From: Candidatus Enterousia sp.
Lineage (GTDB): Bacteria; Pseudomonadota; Alphaproteobacteria; Rs-D84
Direction: 5' to 3'
DNA length: 64,000 bases
Assembly (NCBI GenBank): GCA_045133095.1
Contig: JBGUTP010000004.1
Coordinates: 142,873 to 206,872, forward strand
Below are positions 4,102-21,015 of the stretch, piece by piece. Position numbers and translations under genes: made by a program. The notes under the pieces were generated by a model. It did no database searches, was not told the origin of the DNA, and saw nothing but the letters and a program-made list of their open reading frames with translations. Positions within the stretch are counted from its first letter, which is position 1, and the number at the start of each line of letters is the position of its first letter.

Positions 4102-4443
4102 TCATTCCCCATCCGGGATTTCGGGGCTGGATACTTCGGTGATGTCATCAAATGGGATTTTGGTTTTGACTATGGTGATGTATCGGTATTCGGGGTCTAT
4201 GCGGGTGACCAGGCCCATTATGGTGTCATAGGCATCGGTCCGATAAAATCGCACCGTTATCATCATGCCCTTTTTAACCAGCGCAAGTTTCCGGGACAGT
4301 CGTTCGGCGGCATCGCCAATCAATTCCCGTCTGGGCTCAACCACCCGATTTTTAGCCAGCACCATCGCATAGTACCCACGCAGGGCCGCAAAAGGCATAA
4401 ACTGTTTTGCACGTGCGGTATTATCAGCCATTGTGTCCCCCAA
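4102..4443 (-). CDS. YolD-like protein (accessory partner of Y-family polymerase)
   Basis: 113 aa. It overlaps the 3' end of the upstream polymerase gene. Sequence and size are consistent with the YolD family associated with UvrX/UmuC on mobile elements. Confidence 0.6.
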   Translation of the reverse strand: MGDTMADNTARAKQFMPFAALRGYYAMVLAKNRVVEPRRELIGDAAERLSRKLALVKKGMMITVRFYRTDAYDTIMGLVTRIDPEYRYITIVKTKIPFDDITEVSSPEIPDGE

Positions 4444-5686: not shown

Positions 5687-5845
5687 TCCAGGACTCAGTA
5701 TAAACCGAATTCACAGGATGTCAAAAAGGATTGTATGGATAAAGGAACCCGCCCATGTGGGGCTAGTATTTACTTTAAGGATAAATGGATGCAATAGCCT
5801 GTACGGTTGAATATTTTTCCAATATTATACAGTGTTTATAGCGCG

Positions 5846-8800: not shown

Positions 8801-8992
8801 CAGGCACTTTTCTTTTTCGGCAATGACATCCCTGGCCAAGAATTGTAACATTCTTGGGCTCGGCTTCTCTAAGCCTTTTATCAATGTACATATTCTGCGA
8901 TATTCTGACAAATCATAGTCAGAAAACGTTCCGTTTTGTATATCCCAAACGTACGCAGTTATGTCTAAATCTATTTGTGTCTCTAAATCCAT
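5846..8992 (-). CDS. UvrD/Rep-like superfamily-1 helicase with inserted restriction-endonuclease-like segment and four N-terminal ~33-aa repeats
   Basis: Walker A LAGSGKTGT. Q-motif region ATTFHSFA. DExx box FIDEFQDFS. Motifs V/VI GTIHSVKGQEADVVVI and FYVAITRAKEQLWI. Inserted KPDFLL...VWEHWG segment. N-terminal repeats carry a S/YE(F/Y)xxIC core. Confidence 0.8.
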   Translation of the reverse strand: MDLETQIDLDITAYVWDIQNGTFSDYDLSEYRRICTLIKGLEKPSPRMLQFLARDVIAEKEKCLQTKIAKLIEDFRTTLEAKYYWSEYQKICELIEQLNDAAFFSKQKEELWAMVEDRGLVIEIDSRIEMLVTNIEKKQQSLNYESIFHDICDMIKRLKEPAQRHLDFLSLDITAFVLETQLKAQIDEDIENFYQHWHTDGDISFSEFKAICSRIDKISRPSQKMLAFRQNEVSVRQYEEGKKLTEEIQKDMAHYRGLELPQIRIMRPELLKKLDNIDIPDVARLKNEVNSIIADKVVEWFEHHVTKNTNGDIYVVDRKQAMVIADEHKNLLVQALAGSGKTGTLVAKIVYLVAICNINPDSIIAFAFNKDAAKEINNRLASIRVDGQQIITKAVATTFHSFAYNNVRHNKILCDSKEQGPELSKFIQDIVFDNVSPEELYSVCRKLGHKIEKKYFVSEDDFYQMVRAQEYKTLDNTCVKSRAEKVICDFLFEHGIEYMYEPVCYTSNLWGIAKQNEREYLVQKESIKPDFLLKDSNLVWEHWGITGRETEEEIEKINAAGHIGKYSEYKTNMDWKKWFYAREWVDPSAVDYNKYAKQVKDWNGLVETYYNPTQSREEFENTIKELLNKQGIKTEKLSRDILVRQVWKSHMPDFAKLIAQFINRAQQSFLNDIEALEEKVKSVPEYTREREFLDIAIRIYKLYMQKIKEHNQYDMDFNMLMDKASKSIKDNQEVNITKKQYIFIDEFQDFSKLFFDFIDAIKQKNPYCNVMCVGDTYQAINRFAGSDVKYFDNFRNYFQYAYILTLDTNYRCNSNIVDNARVFMQKHMDSRESFNAHKSEPGNVNTLNISDVFIERRRAIDVTADADRIFKTKMSVSDKRAPEINAVRYLKSVVWIIKQNKDKNSIKLLHRNNDMSFWFVDIERFLAKVKEVCVELGIMSREEFEKKVSIGTIHSVKGQEADVVVILEADASIMSALHPDATLFEVFGETPNEVLKDQKRLFYVAITRAKEQLWILYNGADKTAFLNGLPANEIDPRTVKISETVNKH

Positions 8993-9052
8993 AACATCAC
9001 CACCTCATATGAGATATAGTGAAATTAATCCTCTGTTCAAGCTGGTAGAACT

Positions 9053-9460
9053 TTAGGCCAACACACCCATAAAACAATATGGTTTTTGGGATAAGATTTG
9101 CGACACGATTAAATCTGCTGGTAATTGTGGGTGAGATGGCAGGTTTGGAATTGATACCCAGTGCATATCGTCGTGGACGCGCAGTTGGATTTCACCAGTG
9201 TAGGATTTGATTTCGTATGTGTGCAGTTCGATAACCCGGCCTGAATCCGTTGTATGTTTTGCGATTGTAATCAAGTCGCCAATTTGTGCATCTATCCCCA
9301 ACTCTTCGGCCAGTTCACGTTTCAGGCATGTTGGGCCGTCTTCACCATCTTCAAACTTACCACCGGGATATTCCCACGTCCCCGCCAATGGCTGGCCAGC
9401 CGCCCGTCGCATCAACAAGACTTTGTCGTCATCCCTAAAAATCGCTGCAGTTACTTTCAT
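9053..9460 (-). CDS. mutT: NUDIX hydrolase (MutT-like), copy 1
   Basis: Nudix box GGKFEDGEDGPTCLKRELAEELGI. 135 aa. Confidence 0.8.
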   Translation of the reverse strand: MKVTAAIFRDDDKVLLMRRAAGQPLAGTWEYPGGKFEDGEDGPTCLKRELAEELGIDAQIGDLITIAKHTTDSGRVIELHTYEIKSYTGEIQLRVHDDMHWVSIPNLPSHPQLPADLIVSQILSQKPYCFMGVLA

Positions 9461-9559
9461 GCATCCCCTTTTCCCTTACGTTAGCACAAAGATATTGTAA
9501 TCAAAGAACTTTTTGAATATAATCCCTATTGTAATACAAGTAGAATTTAGGAGAAAAAT

Positions 9560-10006
9560 ATGTCTATCACACAAGATAACGGCAAAAAAGGCGAACAAGA
9601 AGTTGTCGATTTGGTATTGTGCCCAAATTGTAAAAAGAAATTGATGTTGTTGCCGCCGAATTATCCGTTGTGTGATATACAATGTACTGGCTGCCAATTC
9701 AGAGCACAGATTAAAACAGCAAACCATAAACCTTCATCTGTCATTCGTGGTGCAGGATGGGACATTATGGAAAAAGTGTTAAAAGCGGGTATACTGCCAC
9801 CATTACTTATTTTGAATTTCAAATGGAACGAAAAAGGCAAACAGTTTCAAGAAATTAGATTTTATCCATTTGTTCCAAAATCTCATTTGAAGAAATATAC
9901 CTTGTCACCAGAGGCTAGAAGAGCAAATTATAGGATGTTTAATTACGTAAATATGGATAAATTACCCTATGTAACACTGTATCAAAACCAAACAGAAACA
10001 GCATAG
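9560..10006 (+). CDS. Hypothetical protein with CxxC...CxxC zinc ribbon, possibly a PD-(D/E)xK-fold
   Basis: GKKGEQEV...LCPNCKKK...CDIQCTGCQFRAQIKTA. SD-like aggag lies 8 nt upstream of the ATG. Confidence 0.4.
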   Translation: MSITQDNGKKGEQEVVDLVLCPNCKKKLMLLPPNYPLCDIQCTGCQFRAQIKTANHKPSSVIRGAGWDIMEKVLKAGILPPLLILNFKWNEKGKQFQEIRFYPFVPKSHLKKYTLSPEARRANYRMFNYVNMDKLPYVTLYQNQTETA

Positions 10007-10176
10007 TTATACATCATGCGGAGAAATTCCGCAAACAGGTAATAGACACATAAATTTTATAAGCCTTATTAATCAGGCAATAATACAGCTGTAAGGTGCA
10101 GTACTTTTAACATATCATATGTATGACAATAAACATAAGCCCATACAGTATTAGACTAATGTACGAATTATACAAC

Positions 10177-11046
10177 TTAAATATTGGTATCGGATGGTAA
10201 AAACAACCAATTATATTCTGGAAAAGGTATTGGTTGGCCATAACCTAGACTTTTCATAATGCGCATAACTTCTTCTGCATGACAAGGCAAGTAATCGTGA
10301 CAATGCGCAGGAAAACTCTCTATAAATATAATTGGTTTGTATTTTTTTATAATATTCATCATCCCTTTTAGTGCTTCTATTTCAAAACCCTCTACATCTA
10401 TTTTTATAAAATCTAGTTTATTTACGTCCAATTTGAACCGATCTAGTGATACTATTGAAACAGAATATTTGTTTTTTGTATCTGACACTTTTATACTTGT
10501 ACCTCCAATATTATCAGATGCCATAAAATCAATTTCTCCCTTTCCATTATTGCTCCCCACCCCCATGTTAAAAGCCGTCACAATATTATCAATCTTGTTG
10601 ATTTTGATATTATTTGTTAACATTCTGAAGGTTTCTGGAATCGGTTCAAAAGCGATCACCCTTTTTGCTTCACCAACTGTCGCAAAAAATACCGAATGAT
10701 TGCCAATATTTGCCCCCACATCCAGTATGGTGGCATTTTTCGGTAAATATTTTAAAAGACGATAAAGAATATCTTGTTCAAAAAAATTAGATGTATTCAC
10801 TATGGTACGTTGAATTACATCCCATGGGTACAGCGGGCAATACATTTTTATAGAATTCGGCATTGTAAAAACGTCCTTATTTTGTATCAAAGACATTTTT
10901 CTACAAATAGTGTCTGTATCAGAATATACAGGGATATACTTTGGCAATATTCCGTGTTTCCTTTGGAATTTGCGACGGTTGTCTTTTGATATAATAAAAA
11001 AAGAGATTATTTTAAACACGCGTTGCATTATTTTTCCATATAACAT
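10177..11046 (-). CDS. FkbM-family SAM-dependent methyltransferase
   Basis: ILDVGANIGNHSVFFA...RVIAFEPIPETF...IDFIKIDVEGFE is typical of the Methyltransf_21/FkbM domain. Confidence 0.7.
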   Translation of the reverse strand: MLYGKIMQRVFKIISFFIISKDNRRKFQRKHGILPKYIPVYSDTDTICRKMSLIQNKDVFTMPNSIKMYCPLYPWDVIQRTIVNTSNFFEQDILYRLLKYLPKNATILDVGANIGNHSVFFATVGEAKRVIAFEPIPETFRMLTNNIKINKIDNIVTAFNMGVGSNNGKGEIDFMASDNIGGTSIKVSDTKNKYSVSIVSLDRFKLDVNKLDFIKIDVEGFEIEALKGMMNIIKKYKPIIFIESFPAHCHDYLPCHAEEVMRIMKSLGYGQPIPFPEYNWLFLPSDTNI

Positions 11047-11709
11047 TTAGTATATTTCCATTTTTTTATCCCAATCAATATTGTGTTTTACTATTTTTGC
11101 AGGATTACCAGCAATAACAGTATTTGTCTCTCTAAAACCCTTTGATATAACTGCGGCATTCGCAACAACCGTGTTATTTGGAATTTTTGCCCGTTTCGTA
11201 AAAATAGCATTTGCTCCAATCCAACAGTGATCACCAACAGTCAAAATGTCTTTTGGAATATTTATAACTCGTTTAGTGTCATTATCCATTAAGGCATGAA
11301 AATCAGAAGCCCAAACTTGAACATCCCTAGAAATCAAACAATCTTTACCAATACAACATTTTGCCCCAGCTGATATGTAAATGTGTATTTCGCTTATGTA
11401 TGTATTATCGCCAATAGAAAGATAATTACTATTTCCACGTTCCATTAATATATTTGTATCGTTAAACATGCAGTTTTTACCTAAATTTACAACATTATCA
11501 TCGGATAATATGGTAATATTTATGTTAGACTGGTTTAGCGGAAGCGAAATATAAATTCTATTATTATTTCCATGTATTTTAATTTTGCCTAGCTTTCGAA
11601 TTTCTTTTTGCCCCAGCTTAAAAAGCTTGTCATTGATAACAGCCGCGACAATGTTGTTTTTTCCTTTTACATCTAATTTTCTTGAATTAAATTTTAACAT
11701 ATCATGCAA
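11047..11709 (-). CDS. Hexapeptide-repeat (left-handed beta-helix) sugar O-acetyltransferase
   Basis: Repetitive [LIV]G..xxI hexads. The C-terminal HCWIGANAIFTKRAKIPNNTVVANAAVI resembles LacA/WbbJ/Vat-type acetyltransferases. Confidence 0.65.
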   Translation of the reverse strand: MHDMLKFNSRKLDVKGKNNIVAAVINDKLFKLGQKEIRKLGKIKIHGNNNRIYISLPLNQSNINITILSDDNVVNLGKNCMFNDTNILMERGNSNYLSIGDNTYISEIHIYISAGAKCCIGKDCLISRDVQVWASDFHALMDNDTKRVINIPKDILTVGDHCWIGANAIFTKRAKIPNNTVVANAAVISKGFRETNTVIAGNPAKIVKHNIDWDKKMEIY

Positions 11710-11761
11710 TATTGTAATTTATAGTGCTACTTTTTCAAGCTTTTTCTTGAAATTTGATATT

Positions 11762-12556
11762 ATGTGTATAATTATGGGAAAAAGAGGTTTTGCATTGATC
11801 CCAAAAATTTCCGTTTTTATGCCTGCATACAATTCTGAAGAATTTATAGCAGAAGCCATAGAAAGTATTTTAAATCAAACTTTTAAAGATTTTGAATTTA
11901 TCATAATCAATGATGGTTCTACAGATCATACGTGGGACATAATACAAAAATATGCAAGGCAGGACAACAGAATCCGCGCATACTCCAGATGTATAAACAA
12001 GGGGATTGTTTATACTGCTAATGAAGGCTTTGAACTTGCAAGGGGCGAATATATCGCTCGAATGGATAGTGACGACATATCACTACCTGAACGTTTTGAA
12101 AAACAGATAAAATATATGGAAACCCATCCCGACATCGGCTTGCTGGGGGCCTGGACACAGTATTTTCCGGGTTTTGATATCTCAAAAAGACCGGAGAACA
12201 TCAATTTGTTTTACCTATTAAAAGATTGCCCTGTAGACCAGCCTGTTGTAATGATTAGAAAATCAGTCATAGATAAATACCATTTACGTTATGATGAAGA
12301 CTATCTGGCATGCGAAGACCAAGAATTATGGTTCAGATTAATAAAAGTATCCAGGATTGCTAACTTGCAGGAATTATTGTTAATGCACAGATGGCACGGG
12401 AATAATATTTCAATCAAAATGGGCGACATTCAGCAACAGAACATCCAAAAAATTCGAAGACAGATTTTAAATTTCATAACGACAGACAAAAAAGAACAAG
12501 ATGCAATAAAAAAAATTATACCAGAAATGCTTGCACCCTTGCTATTAAAAACTTGA
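11762..12556 (+). CDS. Family 2 glycosyltransferase
   Basis: ISVFMPAYNSEEFIAEAIESILNQTFKDFEFIIINDGSTD...RMDSDDIS is the GT2 DxD architecture. The ORF track extends to 11585, but that part overlaps the convergent acetyltransferase; the internal Met at 11762 or 11774 is the likely start. Confidence 0.75.
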   Translation: MCIIMGKRGFALIPKISVFMPAYNSEEFIAEAIESILNQTFKDFEFIIINDGSTDHTWDIIQKYARQDNRIRAYSRCINKGIVYTANEGFELARGEYIARMDSDDISLPERFEKQIKYMETHPDIGLLGAWTQYFPGFDISKRPENINLFYLLKDCPVDQPVVMIRKSVIDKYHLRYDEDYLACEDQELWFRLIKVSRIANLQELLLMHRWHGNNISIKMGDIQQQNIQKIRRQILNFITTDKKEQDAIKKIIPEMLAPLLLKT

Positions 12557-12604
12557 CAATCTTGTTATCTGTGCTACAACATATGTAAACACAGGGGCTG
12601 TGAC

Positions 12605-14056
12605 ATGAAATTTGAATACGGTGTTGATTTAATACAATTAGCAGACAATATCTACTGTTTGAATAACGCCTATAGACAGACGCAAATTTTCGGAAACAGA
12701 AAACTCAAAGAATATTTTGAAAAAGTATGCAAAAACAATTCTGTGAATGCAGACGTGTACAACATGTTTTTACAAAATAATTTCTTAACAGATAAGCCGG
12801 CAGATGCGTACAAACAAAAACTATTACAAGATTCTTTAATATACAGTGCAAAGCCAGAATTTAACTTATTAAGAATTTTACTGACCGATGTTTGTAATTT
12901 AAATTGCGATTATTGCAAGGTTGTAAAATTGATAGATACCCCATCGGCAAAACCAACAAAACAAGAACGTTTGGAAGAAGCTATAAAGTTCTTTTTTGAA
13001 AATTCTATACCATATGAGCCTAAAATAATTCATATCACTGGCGGTGAACCCACATTGTTTTTTGATAGTATTAAGCAAATAGTACAATATAAAAAGAAAT
13101 ATATGCGCCCAAATGAAAATTGCTGGGTTGTGGTAGGCACAAACGCTATAGCTATAACACCAGATAAAGCAAAATTTTTTGCCGACAATAACATAAAATG
13201 TATTGTGTCAATGGATGGACCAGAACATACGCATAATTTATTACGAAAAAACCACGCAGGCCACGGAACCTGGGCAACAGTTGATAAAAACATTAAACTG
13301 TTACAATCATATGGTGTTGAAATATCTATTTCAGCCGTTATGGGCAAGCACACGATTTATAACGCTGATGAAAATATATCGTTCCTGGTTAATGAATACC
13401 ATCCAACAGGTCTGGGGATCAATTTTATGAAGCCACCAACCACAAATTCAGCTGACTATGAATATTTAATTGATGAAAAACTATATGCAGAAACGATGTA
13501 CAAACTGCATCAAAACTATCGAAACCGTGGCGTGTTCTTTGAGTTAATTTTCAGACACTTGGAACCATTTGTACAACAAACTTTCAGATTTCATGATTGT
13601 GGTGCTGCGGCCAGTAAAAATTTAAACATTGATGCAAAAGGAAATATCGGACCGTGCAAATCTTTCTTATTGCTAAATAAAATGGCTATGAAGGATATAA
13701 ATATCCAAGAATATATTGATATCGTATCTACAAATTGGGAAAAACGTTCACCAATTCATTTTGCTCCCTGTCAAAATTGCCCAAGTATCGGCATATGCGG
13801 AAATGGCTGTGCATATGATGCATTTATAAACAATAGCGATATGTTAGCCATAGATACACGAGGGTGCAAATATGTAAAATATTTTTATAAATTGTTCTTG
13901 CAAGACTTGTATGAAATATCGCGTAAAACACATAGCGGGCAAGATATTTTTATACCAACGCAATCTGATAGATTGCAAATGTTGGGAAATGTAAAAGAAA
14001 TTCAAAATTCCTTAAGTTATTCAATAGGACATCAGACGAAACTGTTTCAAAAATGA
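12605..14056 (+). CDS. Radical SAM enzyme with C-terminal SPASM/twitch Cys cluster
   Basis: CNLNCDYC is the CxxxCxxC motif. ITGGEP glycine-rich SAM motif. C-terminal Cys cluster CGAAAS...GPCKS...APCQNCPSIGICGNGCAYDA. 483 aa with an ~95-aa N-terminal extension. Confidence 0.8.
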   Translation: MKFEYGVDLIQLADNIYCLNNAYRQTQIFGNRKLKEYFEKVCKNNSVNADVYNMFLQNNFLTDKPADAYKQKLLQDSLIYSAKPEFNLLRILLTDVCNLNCDYCKVVKLIDTPSAKPTKQERLEEAIKFFFENSIPYEPKIIHITGGEPTLFFDSIKQIVQYKKKYMRPNENCWVVVGTNAIAITPDKAKFFADNNIKCIVSMDGPEHTHNLLRKNHAGHGTWATVDKNIKLLQSYGVEISISAVMGKHTIYNADENISFLVNEYHPTGLGINFMKPPTTNSADYEYLIDEKLYAETMYKLHQNYRNRGVFFELIFRHLEPFVQQTFRFHDCGAAASKNLNIDAKGNIGPCKSFLLLNKMAMKDINIQEYIDIVSTNWEKRSPIHFAPCQNCPSIGICGNGCAYDAFINNSDMLAIDTRGCKYVKYFYKLFLQDLYEISRKTHSGQDIFIPTQSDRLQMLGNVKEIQNSLSYSIGHQTKLFQK

Positions 14057-14655
14057 TAAAACAAAATCATTTATTTTCTGTTTTAATGACTGGTTACAGT
14101 ATTCTGAAACGACGCAATAATTTTGTACATAATTTTAACCATTGTAAACGCGTATTTTTTAATAATGTGCGGATTTTAGGGTTAAGTTCTTTACCAAGTC
14201 TTCGAATTTTAATATTATCGGCCATGTGGCACGACGTTGGACAAAACGACTTCAAACAACAAGCAAAAAATCATCATATATATTCCGCCAGACTATTCAA
14301 ATACTTTACTAAAGAACAAACATATTCAGACATAGTTGTGAATATAATTTTATGCCATAGAAATCGTGGAGCCAATAAGCAATTTTCTCCAAAGACATTA
14401 TTAGAAAAAGCTTTTTTCGATGCCGACAAATTAGACATATTAAATATACCACGATCAAAAAAACTGATAAAATTATACTCTTATGGGTTTTCGTGCGGAG
14501 AGTTTAATATCAAGGACACGCTTGATTTTTGGGAAAACTTTATTATAAACGGCGAAAAAACTTTATTCTTAGAAAGCTCCAAGAAAATATTTCGTAAGAG
14601 AATAAAAAAATTTATACAATTTGTCATATACACCAAAGGAAAATATAATGTCTGA
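14053..14655 (+). CDS. HD-domain-like phosphohydrolase (tentative)
   Basis: H/D-containing segments SAMWHDVG, ILCHRNRG and FFDADKLDIL. The ATGA start overlaps the upstream stop. Confidence 0.35.
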   Translation: MIKQNHLFSVLMTGYSILKRRNNFVHNFNHCKRVFFNNVRILGLSSLPSLRILILSAMWHDVGQNDFKQQAKNHHIYSARLFKYFTKEQTYSDIVVNIILCHRNRGANKQFSPKTLLEKAFFDADKLDILNIPRSKKLIKLYSYGFSCGEFNIKDTLDFWENFIINGEKTLFLESSKKIFRKRIKKFIQFVIYTKGKYNV

Positions 14656-16015
14656 TACGAACAAAGTGGAAATTACAAACATGGATGTTTTTTTTGATTA
14701 CGTCAAAAAACATTTTTTTGCCGACATTACAAACCAGCCATATTTATTGAAAAGCACCCCGAACAGTGTGTTGAACCCCATTCTAGACACATTAAAATCT
14801 CATTTGTCAGATGACAACGTCAAGCAAATAAAAAATATTTTGTTTTATAAGTGGATTTATACCAACGGAATGAAATCCCTATTATTGAATCCGCATTCAG
14901 ATTATATCATACGAAATAGTATTGGATATGAATTTACACCGAAACAAGAGCTTTATGGACATTTATTACAAATTAAAGACTATTTCGACTATATGATAGA
15001 TTTTTATATTGAAAAAAATATGGCTTATAAATTGAAATTAGCATTATTTACATCGGAAACATTTGAATCAGCATTTAATAAGGCAAATATCGAATTTGAA
15101 AAGAGAGTAAAAAGAAATTCTGCCTTGGGGATAGATAATGAAAAAAACATCCTGCTGCATCTGGATAATGGATATAAGCTTGTAAAATTAAATACAGTAT
15201 ACGATTTAGATTATGAAGGATTGTGCATCGGACACTGTATTGGCGAAGGTGTTTTAGACAAAGAAATTAACGACACAAAATCAACAATAACTATTTGCTC
15301 TTTGCGCAAAGACATGTTGGTAAAGGAACGTATCTCCGGTAAAAACATTGTTCGTTCAATACCTTTTGCTTCAATTGTCATAGATCGTTTTGAAAAACTT
15401 CCAAACGGAAAAATATCAGGCAATGTGATTTCCATTGAGGGGCACATCGCTGGGAAAGTTAGATACTACCTAAAAAACCAATTGGACAAACAAGATGCCT
15501 GGAAGGGAAGATTTCCCCCATATATTCATCCTACTTCCGTATCAAACGAAGAAATCGAGTGTCGGAACACCGAACTACAACGAACGCTAACAAACTTCTT
15601 TATGCAAAACAAATTGATAATATGCGGAGAGAGAAAGTATACAACATGTTTGACCCAGGATTATAAGATCGACATGCCAACAACATATTCTATAAGAATT
15701 CGGACCCAGGATGATTTAATTCGAGCTAGCCAACAAGGTTTTTATCATATTGTTATCCCTTCATACGATATGTTTATACCAACAATTCAGCCGATAAGGG
15801 TGGAGCCTTTTGAGAATAAACATAGTTTAAACATAACAAAGTCAGGAACATACGATTTAACGGAGATGCAGAATTTAAAAACAATAAATGTTTCTGCTAG
15901 CCAAGTAACAATATATTGTTATAATTGTAATAATTTGCAAAATATTAATCGTCTAACAGACACAAAAGTGTTGATAGAACGCAATAAATATAATATCATA
16001 CAAAACACTCACTAA
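14648..16015 (+). CDS. Hypothetical protein (~455 aa), no recognisable domain
   Basis: Long ORF inside a same-strand operon. The Met at 14648 follows ggaaa and overlaps the upstream gene end. It contains LDYEGLCIGHCIGEG. Confidence 0.45.
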   Translation: MSDTNKVEITNMDVFFDYVKKHFFADITNQPYLLKSTPNSVLNPILDTLKSHLSDDNVKQIKNILFYKWIYTNGMKSLLLNPHSDYIIRNSIGYEFTPKQELYGHLLQIKDYFDYMIDFYIEKNMAYKLKLALFTSETFESAFNKANIEFEKRVKRNSALGIDNEKNILLHLDNGYKLVKLNTVYDLDYEGLCIGHCIGEGVLDKEINDTKSTITICSLRKDMLVKERISGKNIVRSIPFASIVIDRFEKLPNGKISGNVISIEGHIAGKVRYYLKNQLDKQDAWKGRFPPYIHPTSVSNEEIECRNTELQRTLTNFFMQNKLIICGERKYTTCLTQDYKIDMPTTYSIRIRTQDDLIRASQQGFYHIVIPSYDMFIPTIQPIRVEPFENKHSLNITKSGTYDLTEMQNLKTINVSASQVTIYCYNCNNLQNINRLTDTKVLIERNKYNIIQNTH

Positions 16016-16026
16016 GGATTGCTTTT

Positions 16027-16896
16027 ATGAAAATATACAAAGATGGCTGGCTAGAAACTGGCGAGGGACATAGTATTTATTATATGTTATTAGGCAACCC
16101 AAATGGCACACCTGTTTTGTCTTTTCATGCTGGCCCTGGGGATTGTTCATGGGCAGGATTTTATGATTTTTTAGACGAAAAAAAATATAACATTATTACA
16201 TTTGACCAACGTGGCTGTGGAAAATCTGAGCCCTTTGGCAAAATAGAAGATAACACAATTGACAAAATTTTAGCGGATGCAAAGGCATTGCTTGACTTTA
16301 TTGGCATTCAGGATAAATGTATTTTATTTGGTGGGTCCTGGGGCAGCACTTTGGCATTGGCTTTTGGGGCAAAATTTCCACATATAACAAAATCCTTGGT
16401 GCTATCAAATGTTTTGTTGGGCCGCCATCATGATTTAAAAAAACTGATGTCTGATTTAAAAAAATTTAAGCCATTATCAGATTATGATGTTGATGAAAAT
16501 AATATATTCTTGAAAATAAAGCAGGCGATATGTAAAAACGATATTGAATTTTTGTCAAAATATAATGATTATGAAATATATAAATATACATTTCATAGAA
16601 GCGATGGGTTAAAAACAAATTTGATAGAAAAAGATTTCTTACAAAAACGTCTTTATTGTAACTTTTTATGTAACAACCTATTTTTGTCAAACAAAGGTAT
16701 TGTGAATGAGTTGCAAAAACTGTCTGACAAGCCCATTTTCTTGGTACATAATAAATACGACCCGATATGTAATATAGAGCAAGCACATCTTTTAAAAAAG
16801 CATCTACCACAAACAGAATTGGTCGTGTTAAACAAACGTGGGCACGGAGGAGATTTCCAAATTGACACACTTAAAAAATTCTTCAAAAAAGCTTAA
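16027..16896 (+). CDS. Alpha/beta hydrolase, proline-iminopeptidase-like (S33 family)
   Basis: Nucleophile elbow FGGSWGSTLALAFG (GxSxG) with HAGPGDC upstream matches the prolyl aminopeptidase pattern. Confidence 0.7.
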   Translation: MKIYKDGWLETGEGHSIYYMLLGNPNGTPVLSFHAGPGDCSWAGFYDFLDEKKYNIITFDQRGCGKSEPFGKIEDNTIDKILADAKALLDFIGIQDKCILFGGSWGSTLALAFGAKFPHITKSLVLSNVLLGRHHDLKKLMSDLKKFKPLSDYDVDENNIFLKIKQAICKNDIEFLSKYNDYEIYKYTFHRSDGLKTNLIEKDFLQKRLYCNFLCNNLFLSNKGIVNELQKLSDKPIFLVHNKYDPICNIEQAHLLKKHLPQTELVVLNKRGHGGDFQIDTLKKFFKKA

Positions 16897-18067
16897 TGTT
16901 TGTTTAGTTTATCCTGGCTATCCGCCATATGAACAAGAATCCGGGGGGATTGCATCATATGTCCAGGAAACAGTACAGTTTTTGACCGCATCGGGGCACA
17001 ATGTTGTTGTTATTTCCCGTGCGCCTAGCATATCGCACATTATCAAAAAAAACACAAAAGGCGCCCATATTATATATCTGCCACATTTCTTGCCACGCAT
17101 CAGCAAATTATTTCCCCTGTTAAAATTTAATAAATACGGGGCATATTTTTATTCATATAAAGCATACAAATATTTAAACAAGATAGAAAAAGAAACTCAT
17201 ATACGATTTGATGTTATTGAAGCTAGCGATTGGGGCGGCGAAGGTTATTTTTTTGTAAAGAAATTTCCAAAGAGAACAATTATAAAATGTGACACCCCAA
17301 GTTTTATATCAGAATCATACAACCCAAACAACCCGGCGTATTTAAGTTCTTTTGTAAAAAGGCTAGAACAAAAAACATTATTAAATGCTAAAAACATCGT
17401 ATCAAACAGTAAAAAATTAATGCAAAAAATAAATAGCGTACTACATAAAAAATTATCTTTTACTTTGATTCAATTATCAATGAAAACAACGCCTGCCTAT
17501 AAAACAAAGTACGAGAGCAAATTTTCAAAAAATAATCCAATGAAAATTATCTTTTCTGGCAGAATAGAGAAACGAAAAGGGATTTTCAACCTAATAAAAG
17601 CGGTAAAACAACTGAGAGATCAGGGGATATTTTTGGAACTTTATTGTTTTGGTGCTTCAACGCCTGTTAAACAAACGGACACCATAACAATATTACAAAA
17701 TAAAGGATATGAGTGGCTTCATTTTTATGGTTCTGTTCCAAGGAAACAAATGATAGAACAATATAAAAATTATGATTTATGTGTTGTTCCGTCCGTATTC
17801 GACAGTTTTTGCCTTACAGCACTGGAAGCAATATACTCAAAACTGCCAACCATTATGTCTAACACGACCGGCATTACAGATTTAATATCCAACAAGAGCC
17901 TTGTTTTTTGTTCGTTTGACGAAATGCTATTGAAGCTTAAAGATGCATACTATAACTATTCAACCTATATCTCAGCAATCAACTCTACCTCAACTGAATT
18001 ATATCATAAAACACAGACAGCTAATAGGGACCGATTAAATTATTATTATAAAGTCTCACCCACTTGA
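16838..18067 (+). CDS. Family 4 (GT-B, group 1) glycosyltransferase
   Basis: The N-terminal LVYPGYPPYEQESGGIASYVQETVQFLTASGHNVVVIS and C-terminal RIEKRKGIFNLIKAV...EAIYSKLPTIMSNTTGITDLI match the GT4 pattern. The 59-nt overlap with the upstream gene leaves the start uncertain. Confidence 0.7.
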   Translation: MGTEEISKLTHLKNSSKKLNVCLVYPGYPPYEQESGGIASYVQETVQFLTASGHNVVVISRAPSISHIIKKNTKGAHIIYLPHFLPRISKLFPLLKFNKYGAYFYSYKAYKYLNKIEKETHIRFDVIEASDWGGEGYFFVKKFPKRTIIKCDTPSFISESYNPNNPAYLSSFVKRLEQKTLLNAKNIVSNSKKLMQKINSVLHKKLSFTLIQLSMKTTPAYKTKYESKFSKNNPMKIIFSGRIEKRKGIFNLIKAVKQLRDQGIFLELYCFGASTPVKQTDTITILQNKGYEWLHFYGSVPRKQMIEQYKNYDLCVVPSVFDSFCLTALEAIYSKLPTIMSNTTGITDLISNKSLVFCSFDEMLLKLKDAYYNYSTYISAINSTSTELYHKTQTANRDRLNYYYKVSPT

Positions 18068-18129
18068 TACTGTATATTAAATACATCAATGCTTTTTTAC
18101 AGTGGACAATGTTATCTTTAGATACAAAT

Positions 18130-18220
18130 GAAACGCCGCCAGTGGCTGGTCAGCCGCCCGTCGCATCAGCAGAACTTTATCACCATCCCTAAAAATCGCA
18201 GCAGTTACTTTCATATTTCC
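18130..18220 (-). pseudogene. Truncated 5' fragment (~90 nt) of the NUDIX/mutT gene
   Basis: The sequence ccagtggctggtcagccgcccgtcgcatcagcagaactttatcaccatccctaaaaatcgcagcagttactttcat matches the first ~30 codons of both full mutT copies, including the ATG. Confidence 0.6.
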
Positions 18221-18265
18221 CTTCATAGCTCTGATACGCCCCCGTTCTTCCCCATAGCAATATGA

Positions 18266-19828
18266 TTACTTTTTTGATGTTTGCCTCTGTTTTTCTATAT
18301 TCTTAAAATATTCATCCCATGGAAAAGGTTCATTTTGATTCCACTTACCCATTCCTTGTGCGCTTGTTGAAGATATTGCAGAATCCTTAACTATATTAAT
18401 GGGAATAATACCATCTGGGCACTCTATTTCCACTATTGTTGAAGATATTGCAGAATCCTTAACTATATTAACGGGAATAATACCATCTGGGCACACTATT
18501 TCCACTATTGTAGATTCAACATTATAATCATTGTTTTTTAGCGCCCGCAAATATAATCTTAGTTGTTCCTCACAGTATTCAAGATATTTTCCGTTTATAT
18601 TCTTTCCAGTTTTAAAATCCGCTAAATACTGACATATATTATTTCTTATAATCACCAAATCACACCTTCCTTTCACTCCATCTAAACTAACAGAAAACTC
18701 TGTCTGCATCCCTGCCTTTCTGCTTAAATGTCTTGCGATTTGCCTTGAAACTTTCTCCTTTAAATCATCATAGGACATGCGGCTACCATCTTTATAATAC
18801 TCAGCGAGTTCAGCATGTACACGCTTTCCTAATTCTGTATTATCATCACTAAAATCTACATCTGAAATTCCAACGATTTTTTTTGCTGCCTCGCTAATAG
18901 TTTCTGCATTTATCGCCTCTATCTGAACCAGTTTACAGGTTTTGATATCCGTACTTTTTTTTGATATTAGCTTATTTTCAATCAATTTAGAACTTGGTTC
19001 ATCGAGTTGTTTTTTTATCGAATCCGATGACGTTTTATCTTTGAAACTACTGGCTTCTTTATCCAGAGTGCTTATTGCCTCCTGATCTTTATGCGTTTTT
19101 TTGGAAGGTATTTGTTCAGAGACACCATAATACCTCAAGCCTTCCAAAGGATGTTTTGTTTTGCATTTTTTCAGATTTTTATTATACGCATTATCTATTT
19201 TTTGTAAATACTTGCCACTTAAGCACCTCTTGTATTCCTTTAACTGCTTCTGGATCGTTGGCTCAAATAACCTATGCTTATTATTAACAATAAAACCTAT
19301 TGCTTGTTCTGATGCCTTTTCGAGATAATATTCTAAAAACTGTTGTTTACTTGGCTCTGGCAGCAAATTGATACTTTGCTTTATCTTGTTATGTTTTTTT
19401 TTGCATAGTACCCCAGTAAGATTATCATCTATAAACCGTTCAATCAATAAACACAACAAACTTTCATAATACTTAACAATGCTCTTTTTATCTTTGTTCT
19501 GTAATTTTTCTATATTACGCTCTATCTGCTTACGTACCTTTTCATTAAGTAAATCGTTCTTTCTGATATATTTTTTTATCTGTCTGCTTAAACAAGAAAA
19601 ATAATAACTTTTTAAGTTTCTTTTATATTTCTTATTTGACTTAGTTAATAATTTTTTGATCATTCTAGCATCAGCTTCTTCCAACAAATTAGCTTTTCTT
19701 ATAATTCTTTGTGGCACAGAACAGTTCAAATACCAGAATATAATAGAATATAATCCCAGAGTAATCACATTTAAGAAAGCGTTATTATTGTTTTTTGTCA
19801 TATTATCTCCTCTTTTGCGGCTCTGCAT
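18266..19828 (-). CDS. Hypothetical protein: N-terminal TM helix, Lys-rich middle, 24-aa tandem repeat, RecB/Cas4-type PD-(D/E)xK nuclease motif
   Basis: N-terminal LNVITLGLYSIIFWYL is hydrophobic. GRCDLVIIRNNICQYLADFKTGK resembles the D...(I/A)D(Y/F)KTG RecB-family motif. IVEI(V/E)CPDGIIP(V/I)NIVKDSAISST occurs twice. Confidence 0.5.
   Translation of the reverse strand: MQSRKRGDNMTKNNNNAFLNVITLGLYSIIFWYLNCSVPQRIIRKANLLEEADARMIKKLLTKSNKKYKRNLKSYYFSCLSRQIKKYIRKNDLLNEKVRKQIERNIEKLQNKDKKSIVKYYESLLCLLIERFIDDNLTGVLCKKKHNKIKQSINLLPEPSKQQFLEYYLEKASEQAIGFIVNNKHRLFEPTIQKQLKEYKRCLSGKYLQKIDNAYNKNLKKCKTKHPLEGLRYYGVSEQIPSKKTHKDQEAISTLDKEASSFKDKTSSDSIKKQLDEPSSKLIENKLISKKSTDIKTCKLVQIEAINAETISEAAKKIVGISDVDFSDDNTELGKRVHAELAEYYKDGSRMSYDDLKEKVSRQIARHLSRKAGMQTEFSVSLDGVKGRCDLVIIRNNICQYLADFKTGKNINGKYLEYCEEQLRLYLRALKNNDYNVESTIVEIVCPDGIIPVNIVKDSAISSTIVEIECPDGIIPINIVKDSAISSTSAQGMGKWNQNEPFPWDEYFKNIEKQRQTSKK
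18366..18509. repeat. 72-bp tandem direct repeat (2 copies, near identical) inside the 18266-19828 CDS
   Basis: gttgaagatattgcagaatccttaactatatta(a/c)(t/c)gggaataataccatctgggcac(t/a)ctatttccactatt recurs with period 72. Confidence 0.8.
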
Positions 19829-19926
19829 GTGGCATATCTGCTTTCTGTAGCGATAGCGCCACAGATTTCATCTTCGCTTTGGCTCAACAAGTTTTGAATG
19901 CTGTGTTTGTAGAAAATGCACTCATT

Positions 19927-20313
19927 TTACTTTCCTTTGGTTACCAGGGTTTCTGATACAATCAAATCTGCTGGCAATTGTGGATGGGATGGCAAGTCTG
20001 GGACTGGCACCCAGTGCATATCGTCGTGGACGCGCAGTTGAATTTCACCGGTATAGGATTTGATTTCGTATGTGTGCAGTTCGATTACCTTGCCTAAATC
20101 CGTTGTATGTTTTGCAATGGTAATCAGGTCGCCGATTTGTACATCTATCCCCAACTCTTCAGCCAGTTCACGTTTCAGGCATGTTGGGCCGTCTTCACCA
20201 TCTTCAAATTTACCACCGGGGTATTCCCATTCACCCGCAAAAGGTTGGGCCGCCGCCCGTCGCATCAACAGAACTTTATCCCCATTTCTAAAAATCGCAG
20301 CAGTTACTTTCAT
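19927..20313 (-). CDS. mutT: NUDIX hydrolase (MutT-like), copy 2
   Basis: Nudix box GGKFEDGEDGPTCLKRELAEELGI. About 90% nucleotide identity to copy 1 over most of the gene, diverging at the 3' end. Confidence 0.8.
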   Translation of the reverse strand: MKVTAAIFRNGDKVLLMRRAAAQPFAGEWEYPGGKFEDGEDGPTCLKRELAEELGIDVQIGDLITIAKHTTDLGKVIELHTYEIKSYTGEIQLRVHDDMHWVPVPDLPSHPQLPADLIVSETLVTKGK

Positions 20314-20457: not shown

Positions 20458-21015
20458 ATGACACAAGTGTCAAGTGCGGTTGATGTGCTGTGGAATTTGT
20501 ATCTGAGGCACCCGGAAAAACTGAGTAAGGTTGACTGGGAATACCTGATACGGAATCGAGCAGATGCATTAGTACGCGAAATACTGATTAAAGATATGCG
20601 CGAACACATAAAGCCAACACAAGATAAACATGAACAGCAATGGCTGATAGCCAACCAGGAAACTTTGCAACACATTGGACAATGTGTTGCGGACGGTGGG
20701 GCGGTCGCATACATGGACCTGATTGCGGCAATTGATGCGGGGGTGGATATAAATATCCTGAAATACCTGATATCAAAGTGCGACAACATAAATGGGTGTG
20801 ACGAAAATGGGCAGACAGCCCTGCATCACTGTGCGCAGAATTATGTTAGTTTGGATTTGATGAACGAATTACTAATCGCAGATGCAAACAGTGCCGCACA
20901 AGACCGACACGGCAAAGAGGCCCGCGATTACCTGGACAAAGATGTCTGGGGAGAAGACTATGTGACGGCATTACTGATGTTGCGTCCATGCTGGACATAT
21001 TTTTATGACGAATAA
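20458..21015 (+). CDS. Ankyrin-repeat-containing protein
   Basis: NGCDENGQTALHHCAQNYVSLDLMNELLIADANSAAQDRHGKEARDYL fits the ANK consensus G-TALH-A...LL..GA. A second degenerate repeat lies upstream. Confidence 0.5.
   Translation: MTQVSSAVDVLWNLYLRHPEKLSKVDWEYLIRNRADALVREILIKDMREHIKPTQDKHEQQWLIANQETLQHIGQCVADGGAVAYMDLIAAIDAGVDINILKYLISKCDNINGCDENGQTALHHCAQNYVSLDLMNELLIADANSAAQDRHGKEARDYLDKDVWGEDYVTALLMLRPCWTYFYDE

Follow-up and report, generated by a model that had tools for sequence, protein, structure and literature searches.

A mobile eight-gene cassette in Candidatus Enterousia combines a radical SAM/SPASM enzyme of a distinct family with glycosyltransferases and tailoring enzymes

Chemical precedents for the locus described here are the pathways of mycofactocin (MftC, MftE, MftF and MftM) and mycothiol (MshA, MshA2, MshC and MshD). 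A further point of reference is the EpmA/EpmB logic, a radical SAM enzyme paired with an anticodon-less class II aminoacyl-tRNA synthetase (aaRS) paralogue. Our subject is an eight-gene cassette from Candidatus Enterousia sp. (GCA_045133095.1, contig JBGUTP010000004.1, positions 142,873 to 206,872 of the forward strand; this whole 64,000-nt stretch is referred to as the window). Candidatus Enterousia-like hosts are gut Alphaproteobacteria with genomes below 1 Mb. No match of the cassette to any known system was found, and we tentatively favor, with rather less than even confidence, a pathway in the cytoplasm whose product, derived from an amino acid or peptide, is glycosylated, methylated and acetylated. 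Such a compound would amount to a small, decorated glycoconjugate rather than a surface polymer.

Table 1. Coordinates of the cassette, its genes and its flanking elements in the window
Feature	Position	Strand	Remarks
mutT/NUDIX copy 1, full, left of insertion hotspot	9053-9460	-	PF00293, E 1e-17
ORF, DpnI-like, truncated	9560-10006		Separate gene, not in other cassette copies
Eight-gene cassette (Island A core)	10158-18129	both	7.97 kb; recurs as block, flanks vary
FkbM-family SAM methyltransferase, RfbT-like, 289 aa	10177-11046	-	TIGR01444
LbH (left-handed beta-helix, hexapeptide) O-acetyltransferase, 220 aa	11047-11709	-	WbbJ and Maa among top matches
GT2 (GT-A fold) glycosyltransferase, 260 aa, soluble	11774-12556	+	PF00535
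Radical SAM/SPASM enzyme, 483 aa	12605-14056	+	PF04055, 60 bits; a distinct unnamed family
RRE-like (PqqD-type) N-domain of radical SAM enzyme, residues 1-81	12605-12847	+	
SPASM 7-Cys region of radical SAM enzyme	13598-13867	+	C332-X13-G-X4-C351, C389-X2-C-X5-C-X3-C402, C421
C-terminal signature tail of radical SAM enzyme, residues 449-476	13949-14032	+	P-T-x-x-D-R-x-x-L-L-G-x-V ... L-S-Y-S-I-G-H
Stand-alone small HD-domain hydrolase, 200 aa	14053-14655	+	PF01966
455-aa protein, divergent PcfJ-like centre	14648-16015	+	Domain nt 14915-15517, residues ~90-290
S33 alpha/beta-hydrolase, prolyl-aminopeptidase-like, 289 aa	16027-16896	+	TIGR01249
GT4 (GT-B fold) glycosyltransferase	16838 (GTG) or 16862 (TTG) to 18067	+	PF00534
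mutT 5'-end fragment, 86 nt, immediately past cassette	18136-18221	-	Third member of repeat family D2
mutT/NUDIX copy 2, full	19927-20313	-	In an 89-member MutT cluster of gut Alphaproteobacteria MAGs

Open reading frames and family matches place all eight genes named in the first-pass annotation on the strands given there (Table 1), and the plus-strand genes form the tight operon it described, with successive spacings of a 48-nt gap, a 4-nt overlap, an 8-nt overlap, an 11-nt gap and a 35-59-nt overlap. A divergent intergenic space of 64 bp sets the FkbM and LbH genes apart from this operon. The same annotation ran the island from 9560 to 18067; the eight-gene block stands, but its left edge does not, the DpnI-like gene there being unrelated to the conserved unit. 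No membrane segment is predicted in any of the eight proteins, and all are predicted to be cytoplasmic. Nor does the cassette contain wzx, wzy, wzt, initiating-transferase or NDP-sugar genes, in agreement with the earlier view that no standard O-antigen locus is at hand, and it is no standard capsule locus either; the nearest nucleotide-sugar-type gene in the window encodes an NAD epimerase/dehydratase (39141-40172). Exporter, regulator and immunity genes are likewise absent from the cassette. The precursor-peptide gene for which a search had been proposed was found neither in the cassette, where the intergenic gaps are only 64, 48, 11 and 62 bp, nor as a conserved neighbor at any of the ~45 loci of the radical SAM family examined, and in view of this result a glycopeptide of the RiPP kind would be conjectural.

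The cassette occurs as one block on at least six other contigs, from MAGs or metagenomes, with DNA identities of 79-98%. In blastn comparisons the whole span is 97.7% identical in L012, 87% identical in L001, L003, L004, L013 and L014, and 79.5% identical in L005, L015 and L016, and the copies differ from one another in their flanking DNA. No stop codon interrupts a cassette gene across the copies, and dN/dS is 0.05-0.15 for each of the eight genes (0.09-0.12 for FkbM and 0.07-0.11 for LbH). The genes are thus under purifying selection, and since the entire block recurs in this intact and constrained state its clustering is beyond chance. GC content of the cassette genes is 0.295-0.355 compared with 0.43 for the core genome, within a low-GC tract (~5800-19900) wider than the island itself. 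The cassette is horizontally mobile and strain-variable. Horizontal acquisition at mutT repeats, as first suggested, is supported; the mutT elements number three rather than two. The two full copies share 88% identity across 300 nt (repeat D1); the fragment translates as a truncated MutT N-terminus, and the same fragment also lies directly after the cassette in L012.

By its sequence, the radical SAM enzyme falls in a distinct, unnamed family of ~95 clusters that is sharply delimited by an invariant 3+7 Cys pattern and a universal tail. The domains follow the order RRE-like N-domain, AdoMet core, 7-Cys SPASM and C-terminal L-x-x-S-I-G-H tail. In a 28-sequence alignment (A2) all seven SPASM cysteines are invariant, as are tail residues R456, L470, G475 and H476, and there is no eighth invariant Cys. 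The tail motif is found in 85 of the 95 hits and a close variant in three more, the remainder being truncated or frameshifted; 55 of the 85 carriers have exactly four residues past GH, and distant family members terminate at GH. The predicted model has a pLDDT of ~97 for helix 453-460 and ~57 for the SIGH segment. In an NCBIfam search no known cofactor- or peptide-maturase family was matched at trusted cutoff (best scores 129 bits against a cutoff of 400 and 127 against 340). It had been suggested to be BtrN/anSME-like: its structure is far nearer to the peptide and protein modifiers anSME, its closest structural relative, and CteB than to BtrN, and with the anSME model it scores 113 bits (cutoff 349).

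Together with the HD and GT4 genes, the radical SAM gene recurs in at least eight distinct non-Enterousia loci (L030, L034 [= L064], L035, L036 [= L065], L063, L143/L144, L146 and a contig of GCA_041443065.1) from CPR bacteria, one deltaproteobacterial MAG and unclassified metagenome contigs. Each of these loci adds an aaRS core (PF00152) and an S51 peptidase (PF03575), which in L035 and L036 are fused with HD in one protein of ~810 aa. The aaRS core is nearest to bacterial AspRS (E 5e-44) and is without an anticodon-binding domain. In Enterousia the slots of the AspRS core and the S51 peptidase are occupied by the PcfJ-like protein and the prolyl-aminopeptidase-like S33 hydrolase, and GT2, FkbM and LbH are additions to the radical SAM, HD and GT4 core; L006, a relative of 48% identity, keeps the order radical SAM, HD, PcfJ-like, hydrolase, GT4. 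Other members of the radical SAM family adjoin SerRS-like genes (12 copies in nine loci) or PheRS-alpha-like genes, and these aaRS-like neighbors therefore make amino-acid activation a recurrent partner. Several further members lie among genes for GFO/IDH/MocA, xylose-isomerase-like TIM barrel, shikimate-DH-like, carbamoyltransferase and sulfotransferase proteins, so the substrate could be non-peptidic. The Enterousia cassette is a lineage-specific variant, with genes added, of a broader and so far undescribed system whose constant core is radical SAM, HD and GT4.

The HD hydrolase (PF01966, E 8e-7) has invariant residues H30, H60-D61, H74, H102 and D123/D125/D128, its profile matches the uncharacterised HD hydrolases 2pq7 (1e-14) and 3b57 (9e-13), and its orthologues adjoin the radical SAM gene in the CPR and deltaproteobacterial loci. 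Although initially listed as unknown, the 455-aa protein carries a divergent PcfJ-like domain (hhalign probability 99.2%, E 9e-20), and the regions on its N- and C-terminal sides are orphans. It falls in just five clusters among 5.8e9 proteins; an exhaustive profile search returned one family representative and nine weak hits, all with PF14284 PcfJ, and its poor AF2 model (pLDDT 57) gave no fold match. We know of no activity for PcfJ; one paper notes PcfJ domains in DGR target genes. The S33 hydrolase aligns over its full length with TIGR01249 (E 8e-51; 173 bits, cutoff 260), also matches PF00561 and PF12146, and has a GGSWG nucleophile motif at residue 102; its nearest solved structures are the prolyl aminopeptidases 1qtr (1.5e-37) and 1azw (1.9e-32).

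The remaining four genes, FkbM, LbH, GT2 and GT4, are typical of polysaccharide loci, and this counts against a peptide-derived product. They could belong to a surface-glycan tailoring island in which GT2 and GT4 extend an existing LPS or capsule glycan linked to undecaprenyl, FkbM methylates and LbH acetylates this glycan, and the radical SAM enzyme acts on a sugar in the style of BtrN, DesII or an epimerase, giving antigenic or phage-receptor variation between strains. FkbM (TIGR01444, 113 bits, cutoff 37.7; PF05050, E 4e-21) also matches V. cholerae RfbT (PF05575, E 2e-8). The LbH protein has weak Pfam Hexapep matches and, all under cutoffs, NCBIfam matches topped by WbbJ (E 2e-12), maltose O-acetyltransferase and WcaF. 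GT2 (PF00535, E 1e-37; ATG start, DSD motif at residue 98) resembles EpsE (118 bits) and TuaG (111 bits), again under cutoffs, and GT4 (PF00534, E 1e-20) resembles TuaC and EpsE. The low-GC, horizontally acquired, strain-variable character of the island also fits, and L013 has two further glycosyltransferases (GT4 and GT61) ~3 kb upstream. We consider a surface-glycan role unlikely. The comparative neighborhood is one of amino-acid and peptide chemistry (aaRS-like ligases and serine peptidases), not of sugar-nucleotide chemistry, which alters the sugar-tailoring context first supposed. GT4 orthologues (31-36% identity) adjoin the radical SAM gene in L030, L034-L036 and L063-L065. The top NCBIfam model for GT4 is TIGR04157 glyco_rSAM_CFB (61 bits, under cutoff), a radical-SAM-associated GT4 family.

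The aaRS-like neighbors could also point to an aminoacyl-nucleoside or -glycoside toxin that, like microcin C, albomycin or ascamycin, is directed against an aaRS, with the S51 or S33 protein as self-immunity or activation amidase, the aaRS-like protein as ligase and adjacent full-length aaRSs as resistant copies. Ascamycin is known to be dealanylated by a proline iminopeptidase of Xanthomonas, and the serine peptidase MccF acts in immunity. Class II aaRS or aaRS-like genes of three specificities (AspRS-, SerRS- and PheRS-alpha-type) adjoin the family. In L143/L144 the gene set is flanked by an ABC exporter and a full-length AspRS, and in L030 by a full-length class IIb aaRS; a PRTase-like Glycos_transf_3 occurs together with a HAD phosphatase in one family locus, and the HD family has a distant relative in 5dqv, the nucleotide pyrophosphohydrolase YpgQ. 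Nevertheless, the Enterousia cassette itself encodes neither an aaRS-like protein nor an exporter nor a resistant aaRS, and enzymes that would build a nucleoside are absent. The full-length aaRSs at the flanks may be ordinary housekeeping genes, and an RRE with full SPASM architecture is atypical of nucleoside radical SAM enzymes; we judge a toxin decidedly unlikely.

Quite improbable, in our estimate, is a biological-conflict (anti-phage or anti-plasmid) system in which a nucleotide, nucleic acid or invader protein is modified by radical chemistry and glycosylation and the PcfJ-like protein is sensor or effector. The cassette does lie in a defence-type hotspot, adjoined by a GajB-like helicase, the DpnI-like gene and a PD-(D/E)XK protein, and other copies are near NERD, SLFN-type helicase, HNH, AAA_14/DUF4143 and ParB-methylase genes; GT4 scores 48 bits with PF20706, 'GT4 in conflict systems', above the Pfam cutoff of 26, and we regard PcfJ domains as characteristic of plasmids and phages. 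However, PADLOC returned only generic matches (pVip for the radical SAM enzyme, E 2e-12; a marginal Cas3 match for HD, E 0.0018) and no hits for GT2, GT4, the S33 hydrolase or the 455-aa protein. The radical SAM enzyme is of SPASM type, not viperin-like, CPR versions of the gene set are surrounded by housekeeping genes (TsaD and L32, for example), and the conserved unit has no nuclease, NTPase sensor or abortive-infection effector. Finally, modification of a specific host protein encoded elsewhere, as in EF-P beta-lysylation (EpmB with EpmA) or rhamnosylation, is very improbable: anSME modifies full-length proteins encoded elsewhere, radical SAM with an anticodon-less aaRS core repeats the EpmA/EpmB pairing, one family member adjoins sulfatase-family proteins and the absence of a precursor gene fits, but a mobile, strain-variable cassette is unexpected for core-protein modification, two glycosyltransferases with methyl- and acetyltransferases imply an elaborate glycan, and nothing that could be the target is inherited along with the cassette.

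The original proposal of a glycan or glycopeptide modification pathway is thus partly supported, in gene content, operon structure and mobility, and gives way in context, in the identity of the 455-aa protein and in the start coordinate. Because every enzyme falls under the trusted cutoff of every named equivalog, no pathway step is assigned by homology. For the amino-acid- or peptide-derived glycoconjugate that we favor, the radical SAM enzyme would hold an amino acid or peptide by its RRE-like domain and make a radical C-H-initiated change on this substrate, GT4 would add the first sugar to the modified aglycone or to a phosphorylated acceptor, and the HD enzyme would take phosphate or nucleotide off an intermediate. 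The PcfJ-like protein and the S33 hydrolase might form and cleave an aminoacyl or peptidyl linkage, a pair that would parallel the AspRS core and S51 peptidase of the other loci; we infer, solely from gene position, that the PcfJ-like protein functionally replaces the AspRS core. GT2 would then extend the glycan, with FkbM O-methylating and LbH O-acetylating it. Such a pathway would follow a mycofactocin-like logic, mycofactocin having a radical SAM-SPASM enzyme, a peptidase, a GT2 and a methyltransferase, and also a mycothiol-like logic, mycothiol having a GT4, a phosphatase, an aaRS-like ligase and an acetyltransferase.

All eight genes that the first-pass annotation had listed for this locus were found in the window, where they form a compact cassette with a 64-bp divergent gap. 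Along the plus strand the successive junctions are a gap of 48 nt, overlaps of 4 and 8 nt, a gap of 11 nt and an overlap of 35-59 nt, the last depending on the start codon chosen for GT4. The cluster is real, but its left boundary had been drawn from a separate, truncated DpnI-like ORF: blastn against fetched relatives returned exactly 10158-18129 as the recurring block, with flanks that differ between copies. The block is 87% identical in five contigs, 79.5% identical in three and 97.7% identical in one, a goat-colon MAG whose radical SAM gene is 99% identical to that of the window. In every copy the eight genes are intact, dN/dS lies between 0.05 and 0.15, and the cassette is under purifying selection. 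Chromosomal in origin, the window belongs to an uncultured alphaproteobacterium of the gut, and its right part carries core genes (ProRS, an OlsB/OlsA-like pair, SLT transglycosylase, Cls, tRNA-Arg, FabH, Mdh, PlsX, RpoC, RpoB and L1); each cassette gene has a GC content of 0.295-0.355 versus 0.43 for the core genome. Scans for promoter-like sites (76 versus 58 expected) and terminator-like sites (4 versus 6 expected) were uninformative in this AT-rich DNA. The eight proteins are all predicted to be cytoplasmic, with no predicted membrane segments.

Coordinates of the cassette genes and of neighbouring features in the window
Feature	Position	Strand	Remarks
Left end of variable region	513-5686		includes HTH protein
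Tyrosine integrase	1253-2284
573-aa protein	2316-4037		five DUF4379 treble-clef zinc fingers, REase-like (DUF2726/MTES_1575) and NUMOD modules
Y-family polymerase	4424-5686		UmuC/DinB-like
Extra 4.2-kb block	5738-9972
mutT, full copy 1	9053-9460
DpnI-like ORF	9560-10006	+	148 aa; PF06044 E 2e-14; PADLOC mREase_II
FkbM methyltransferase	10177-11046	-
LbH acetyltransferase	11047-11709	-
GT2	11774-12556	+
Radical SAM enzyme	12605-14056	+
HD protein	14053-14655	+
455-aa protein	14648-16015	+
S33 alpha/beta-hydrolase	16027-16896	+
GT4	16838 or 16862 to 18067	+
mutT, 5' fragment	18136-18221		86 nt
Lys-rich protein	18266-19828	-	520 aa; C-terminal PD-(D/E)XK nuclease domain
72-nt tandem duplication	18364-18435 and 18436-18507		in the Lys-rich protein gene; 97% identical
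mutT, full copy 2	19927-20313
Small ankyrin-repeat protein	20458-21015	+
Autotransporter	21573-24650	-	1025 aa; Chlamydia-Pmp-type repeats
Second radical SAM gene	33765-34823	+	352 aa; unrelated to the cassette enzyme
NAD-dependent epimerase/dehydratase	39141-40172	-	GDP-mannose-dehydratase-like; only nucleotide-sugar-type gene in the window

The mutT repeats previously described as flanking the locus are present, although there are three elements rather than two, and the one directly after the cassette is a fragment. The same mutT 5' fragment follows the cassette in the goat-colon MAG, and in two other relatives (L002 and L014) a full mutT stands to its left; the recurrence of these elements beside the cassette therefore marks the mutT neighbourhood as a recombination hotspot. 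A search for terminal repeats and target duplications at the cassette ends found none. Among the neighbours in other cassette copies are NERD, an SLFN-type helicase and NUDIX; GT4, GT61 and HNH; AAA_14, a trypsin-like gene and a ParB-methylase; and an aryl-polyene-like lipid cluster with Lgt.

The DpnI-like ORF spans only the N-terminal catalytic part of DpnI and falls in a cluster of 62 members that is widely distributed among these gut MAGs; we dropped it as a cassette gene because it is missing from the other copies. It sits in the 4.2-kb block, together with MutT copy 1 and a UvrD/GajB-like helicase of 1048 aa that has a long repeat region at its N terminus. The goat-colon MAG lacks this block and is otherwise collinear, sharing the Y-family polymerase gene that bounds the block on the side away from the cassette, and the block has the appearance of an insertion in its own right at this hotspot. 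The gene for the Lys-rich protein has the mutT fragment on one side and mutT copy 2 on the other, and so is probably another cargo gene of the hotspot. Immediately to the right of the hotspot, the autotransporter and the ankyrin-repeat protein are candidate host- or partner-interaction factors.

The radical SAM enzyme matches PF04055 at 60.4 bits (cutoff 29.5), carries a C97-X3-C101-X2-C104 (CX3CX2C) motif and has a TIM-barrel-like core in its structural model. It also has the seven-cysteine SPASM motif for two auxiliary clusters (C332-X13-G-X4-C351, C389-X2-C-X5-C-X3-C402 and C421) and an RRE-like (PqqD-like) domain of the kind by which RiPP clusters are recognised. The first-pass annotation had suggested an anSME- or BtrN-like enzyme, and neither assignment held. 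The score against anSME TIGR03942 was 112.7 bits (trusted cutoff 349.45) and against PRK13758, also anSME, 88.9 bits (cutoff 441), and identity to 4k36 is 20%; the enzyme has neither the single auxiliary cluster of the BtrN type nor BtrN as its closest fold. No named NCBIfam family reached its cutoff, the FibroRumin maturase scoring 129 bits (cutoff 400) and PapB 127 bits (cutoff 340), and the lack of any trusted match to a known cofactor or peptide maturase agrees with the earlier view of the pathway as uncharacterised. The AlphaFold2 model (28 sequences, pLDDT 90.6) compared best with anSME (29.1), CteB (28.5, 399 residues aligned), ChlB (28.0) and TigE (26.0), followed by SuiB (20.8) and the small-molecule enzymes BlsE (20.3), MoaA (18.0) and BtrN (13.2).

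The enzyme's family, which is sharply delimited, comprises about 95 clusters with 36-57% full-length identity and ranges over Actinomycetota, Bacillota, Alpha- and Deltaproteobacteria, candidate phyla (CPR) bacteria and archaea; its hosts include a Rickettsiales MAG, Thermoactinomyces, Nocardia, Streptomyces and Kitasatospora. Two features define it. The first is an N-terminal domain of ~85 aa, modelled as beta3-alpha3 with a pLDDT of about 95. The second is a C-terminal tail, P-[TS]-x-x-D-R-x-x-L-L-G-x-V followed by [TS]-L-x-x-S-I-G-H, in which R456, L470, G475 and H476 are invariant. The tail was found in 85 of the 95 hits and as a close variant in three more, the remainder being truncated or frameshifted. 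It usually lies 4 residues from the stop, and in the most distant members the protein stops right after G-H. Helix 453-460 of the tail is modelled confidently (pLDDT about 97) and the S-I-G-H segment poorly (about 57). We entertained the tail as a fused precursor and demoted that idea: the tail is universal, has fixed spacing, is never encoded by a gene of its own, and the residues beyond G-H are dispensable.

A precursor-peptide gene beside the maturase, a mark of RiPP clusters for which the first-pass annotation had proposed a search, was found neither in the cassette nor in the family loci. No candidate occurs among ORFs of at least 20 aa across 9400-18300, and no ORF fits the intergenic gaps. 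When the small ORFs lying up to 3 kb from the radical SAM gene were clustered over 33 loci, none was conserved, and inspection of seven CPR and deltaproteobacterial loci likewise revealed no conserved small ORF. The only S-I-G-H hit among small ORFs is an internal start inside a radical SAM gene.

To place the cassette in a wider context, one genome per species was scanned with the radical SAM alignment, followed by a tblastn census, ORF clustering and Pfam scans. At least eight distinct non-Enterousia loci, which we call type A, carry orthologues of the cassette HD protein (28-34% identity, with H30, H60-D61, H74, H102 and D123/D125/D128 invariant) and GT4 (31-36% identity) beside the radical SAM gene. 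Their hosts are a deltaproteobacterial MAG, Taylorbacteria and Magasanikbacteria, to which an HD-profile search added metagenome and Logan contigs; that metagenome scan returned mostly generic HD proteins, with true members of the system in 3 of 80 loci. Every type A locus also encodes an S51 peptidase and a class II aaRS catalytic core (PF00152), nearest to bacterial AspRS (E 5e-44) and without the anticodon-binding domain; in two loci (L035 and L036) a single fusion protein of ~810 aa combines AspRS core, HD and S51. The same radical SAM, HD and GT4 set is present in the window and in a relative of 48% identity (L006), where the order is radical SAM, HD, PcfJ-like, hydrolase, GT4. This core is thus conserved across distant lineages, and the window cassette is a member of the wider system, with S33 in the peptidase slot. 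Enterousia and L006 have a PcfJ-like protein and S33 in place of the AspRS core and S51; one pair has been exchanged for the other, and it is by gene position alone that we assign the PcfJ-like protein to the ligase slot.

Elsewhere the radical SAM family keeps different company. In type B loci (around position 10000 in each of L009, L022, L023, L029, L031, L032 and L038-L041) it is joined by SerRS-like genes (one or two), a ~500-aa NTase-like protein, shikimate-DH-like, GFO/IDH/MocA and xylose-isomerase-like TIM-barrel proteins and sometimes a carbamoyltransferase, a set that appears to be an uncharacterised biosynthetic cluster. Type B hosts include actinomycetes, Thermoactinomyces, Falkowbacteria, Woesearchaeota, Bdellovibrionales and another goat-gut alphaproteobacterium. 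A sulfotransferase accompanies the enzyme in some other contexts, and a PurM-like protein together with a carbamoyltransferase in others. At L145 (6193-10428) a radical SAM gene whose product's tail ends in LKQCIGHEI is followed by genes for a sulfatase/alkaline-phosphatase-family protein, an orthologous HD protein and a PheRS-alpha-like class II core. At L143 (7157-16092) and L144 an ABC exporter and a full-length AspRS of archaeal type (1n9w, E 2e-109) flank a type A set comprising HD, S51, AspRS core, GT4 and radical SAM genes, and at L030 a full-length class IIb aaRS adjoins the type A set; these full-length enzymes could be resistance copies or coincidence. With AspRS-, SerRS- and PheRS-alpha-like genes all found beside this family, amino-acid-activating enzymes are thus its recurrent partners. 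The literature we searched describes neither such a linkage nor a system of radical SAM, aaRS-like, S51 and HD proteins, and the wider, widely distributed system is apparently undescribed there.

The 455-aa protein, formerly listed as unknown, has a PcfJ-like domain by remote homology. It forms only five clusters among 5.8 billion proteins, and an exhaustive profile search of 1.84 billion representatives returned one true relative and nine weak hits, every one of the nine carrying Pfam PcfJ (PF14284). The single sequence does not match the PF14284 HMM; hhalign aligned residues about 90-290 with PcfJ at a probability of 99.2% (E 9e-20), a region that contains the invariant motif Y-E-G-L-C-I-G-H-C-I-G-E-G and is flanked by orphan N- and C-terminal regions. 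The AF2 model (5 sequences) is poor (pLDDT 56.8), and the only Foldseek hits in the PDB, which were GNAT-like, were rejected as meaningless (E >= 0.018, TM about 0.13), leaving no fold match. No activity of PcfJ was found described in the literature searched. The S33 hydrolase appears prolyl-aminopeptidase-like: it aligns with TIGR01249 over its full length (E 8e-51) at 173 bits, below the equivalog cutoff of 259.75, has the nucleophile motif GGSWG at residues 102-106 and matches 1qtr (1.5e-37) over the N-terminal half only. The GT4 matches PF20706, and its closest solved relatives, at a weak E of 7e-7, are 3c48 and 3c4q, which we take to be C. glutamicum MshA.

Our tentative proposal, to which we give somewhat less than even credence, is that the cassette directs synthesis of a small glycoconjugate derived from an amino acid or peptide. 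The radical SAM enzyme would make or modify the aglycone, GT4 would add the first sugar, the HD protein would strip a phosphate or nucleotide, and the ligase-like and peptidase pair would form and cut an aminoacyl or peptidyl bond; the glycan could then be extended by GT2, O-methylated by FkbM and O-acetylated by LbH. There are precedents for such a scheme. Mycofactocin biosynthesis joins a radical SAM-SPASM enzyme and RRE to a peptidase, a GT2 and a methyltransferase, and mycothiol biosynthesis uses the GT4 MshA, a phosphatase, the aaRS-like ligase MshC and an acetyltransferase. The earlier reading of the locus as a glycan or glycopeptide modification pathway is upheld in part and moved toward peptide and amino-acid chemistry. 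The main weakness of the glycoconjugate proposal is that no precursor gene lies in the cassette or beside any family member, and some contexts of the radical SAM family also look like sugar or cyclitol chemistry.

Tailoring of a surface glycan, suggested by four cassette genes of polysaccharide type, is unlikely: the cassette lacks export, initiation and NDP-sugar machinery, and in CPR bacteria its core is again found, there in the company of peptidase and aaRS-like genes. The first-pass annotation had rightly set the locus apart from a standard O-antigen locus, in that Wzx/Wzy, Wzm/Wzt, polymerase, initiating transferase and NDP-sugar genes are absent among the eight proteins and the flanks (1-26000). 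The full-length AspRS and exporter at L143 and L144 are what an aaRS-targeting aminoacyl-nucleoside or -glycoside toxin with an immunity or activation peptidase might leave behind, an explanation we consider distinctly improbable for the cassette. We have still more doubt about a role in defence or biological conflict; the position of the cassette in a hotspot and the match of GT4 to PF20706 point that way, but the cassette corresponds to no PADLOC system, a PADLOC 2.0 scan giving only generic hits (pVip for radical SAM, E 2e-12; mad2 for FkbM; Cas3 for HD) and none for five of the eight proteins. EF-P-style modification of a host protein seems very improbable.

The glycoconjugate proposal can be extended, speculatively and at long odds, to a new pathway class enriched in reduced-genome symbionts (Enterousia, CPR, DPANN) and actinomycetes, composed of the radical SAM family, HD, GT4 and a swappable ligase/peptidase pair. 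The tail might then act in cis as scaffold or substrate for the enzyme's own RRE, on which a small molecule bearing aminoacyl and sugar groups, be it a cofactor, a signal or an aaRS-directed toxin, would be assembled before the dedicated peptidase released it, with the PcfJ-like protein as an amino-acid or peptide ligase or transferase; if true, this would be the first biochemical role for the PcfJ-like domain. The analysis already singles out an unnamed radical SAM/SPASM family with a unique conserved tail and repeated linkage to aaRS-like genes, and gives an orphan domain a concrete, testable biochemical setting. Enterousia (order Rs-D84) has genomes of less than 1 Mb, without the TCA cycle and respiration (PMC12306168). 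About 1% of such a genome is devoted to this acquired, secondary-metabolite-like pathway, and its retention under strong purifying selection therefore implies that the product is probably important to a bacterium living in an animal gut. The compactness of the cassette (8 kb, eight soluble proteins) makes heterologous expression and product discovery realistic.

Among known systems, O-antigen tailoring genes (RfbT, WbbJ/WcaF, EpsE/TuaG) share superfamilies with FkbM, LbH and GT2, which probably perform the same chemistry on a sugar; all three nevertheless fall below equivalog cutoffs, and in the cassette they are coupled to radical SAM, HD, PcfJ-like and peptidase genes. The RRE-dependent RiPP maturases CteB, TigE, ChlB and SuiB and the enzyme anSME are only 16-20% identical to the cassette enzyme, which lies below the cutoff of each named family, has no adjacent precursor and carries a tail unique to its own family; RiPP maturase loci have precursors, proteases and transporters as neighbours, whereas this family has HD, GT4 and aaRS-like genes. 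The CFB system (TIGR04157 glyco_rSAM_CFB with the TIGR04148 maturase) also couples a GT4 genetically to a radical SAM maturase, and TIGR04157 is the best NCBIfam match of the cassette GT4, but at 61 bits against a cutoff of 400 the latter is not a member, and the GG-leader precursor peptides of that system are absent from the cassette.

The mycothiol and bacillithiol pathways (MshA GT4, MshA2 phosphatase, MshC ligase, MshD acetyltransferase) resemble the wider system in combining a GT4, a phosphohydrolase, an aaRS-paralogue ligase and an acetyltransferase. They differ in that the ligase of the wider system is a class II AspRS core rather than a class I CysRS paralogue, that this ligase is missing in Enterousia, and that the thiol pathways have no radical SAM enzyme or peptidase. 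Compared with mycofactocin (MftA-F, MftM), the cassette lacks an MftA-like precursor and MftD and has HD, GT4, LbH and PcfJ-like genes in addition; its peptidase is S33 rather than creatininase-type, its GT2 matches MftF only at E 4e-6, and its radical SAM enzyme, with no trusted NCBIfam match, is not MftC. No MftC or PqqE equivalog accompanied by MftA/B/D/E or PqqA/B/C/D genes was found in the cassette. The two systems nonetheless share a radical SAM/SPASM enzyme with an RRE and a dedicated peptidase, and the cassette may follow the same plan, in which a GT2 glycosylates a peptide-derived aglycone and a methyltransferase O-methylates the sugar, all in the cytoplasm.
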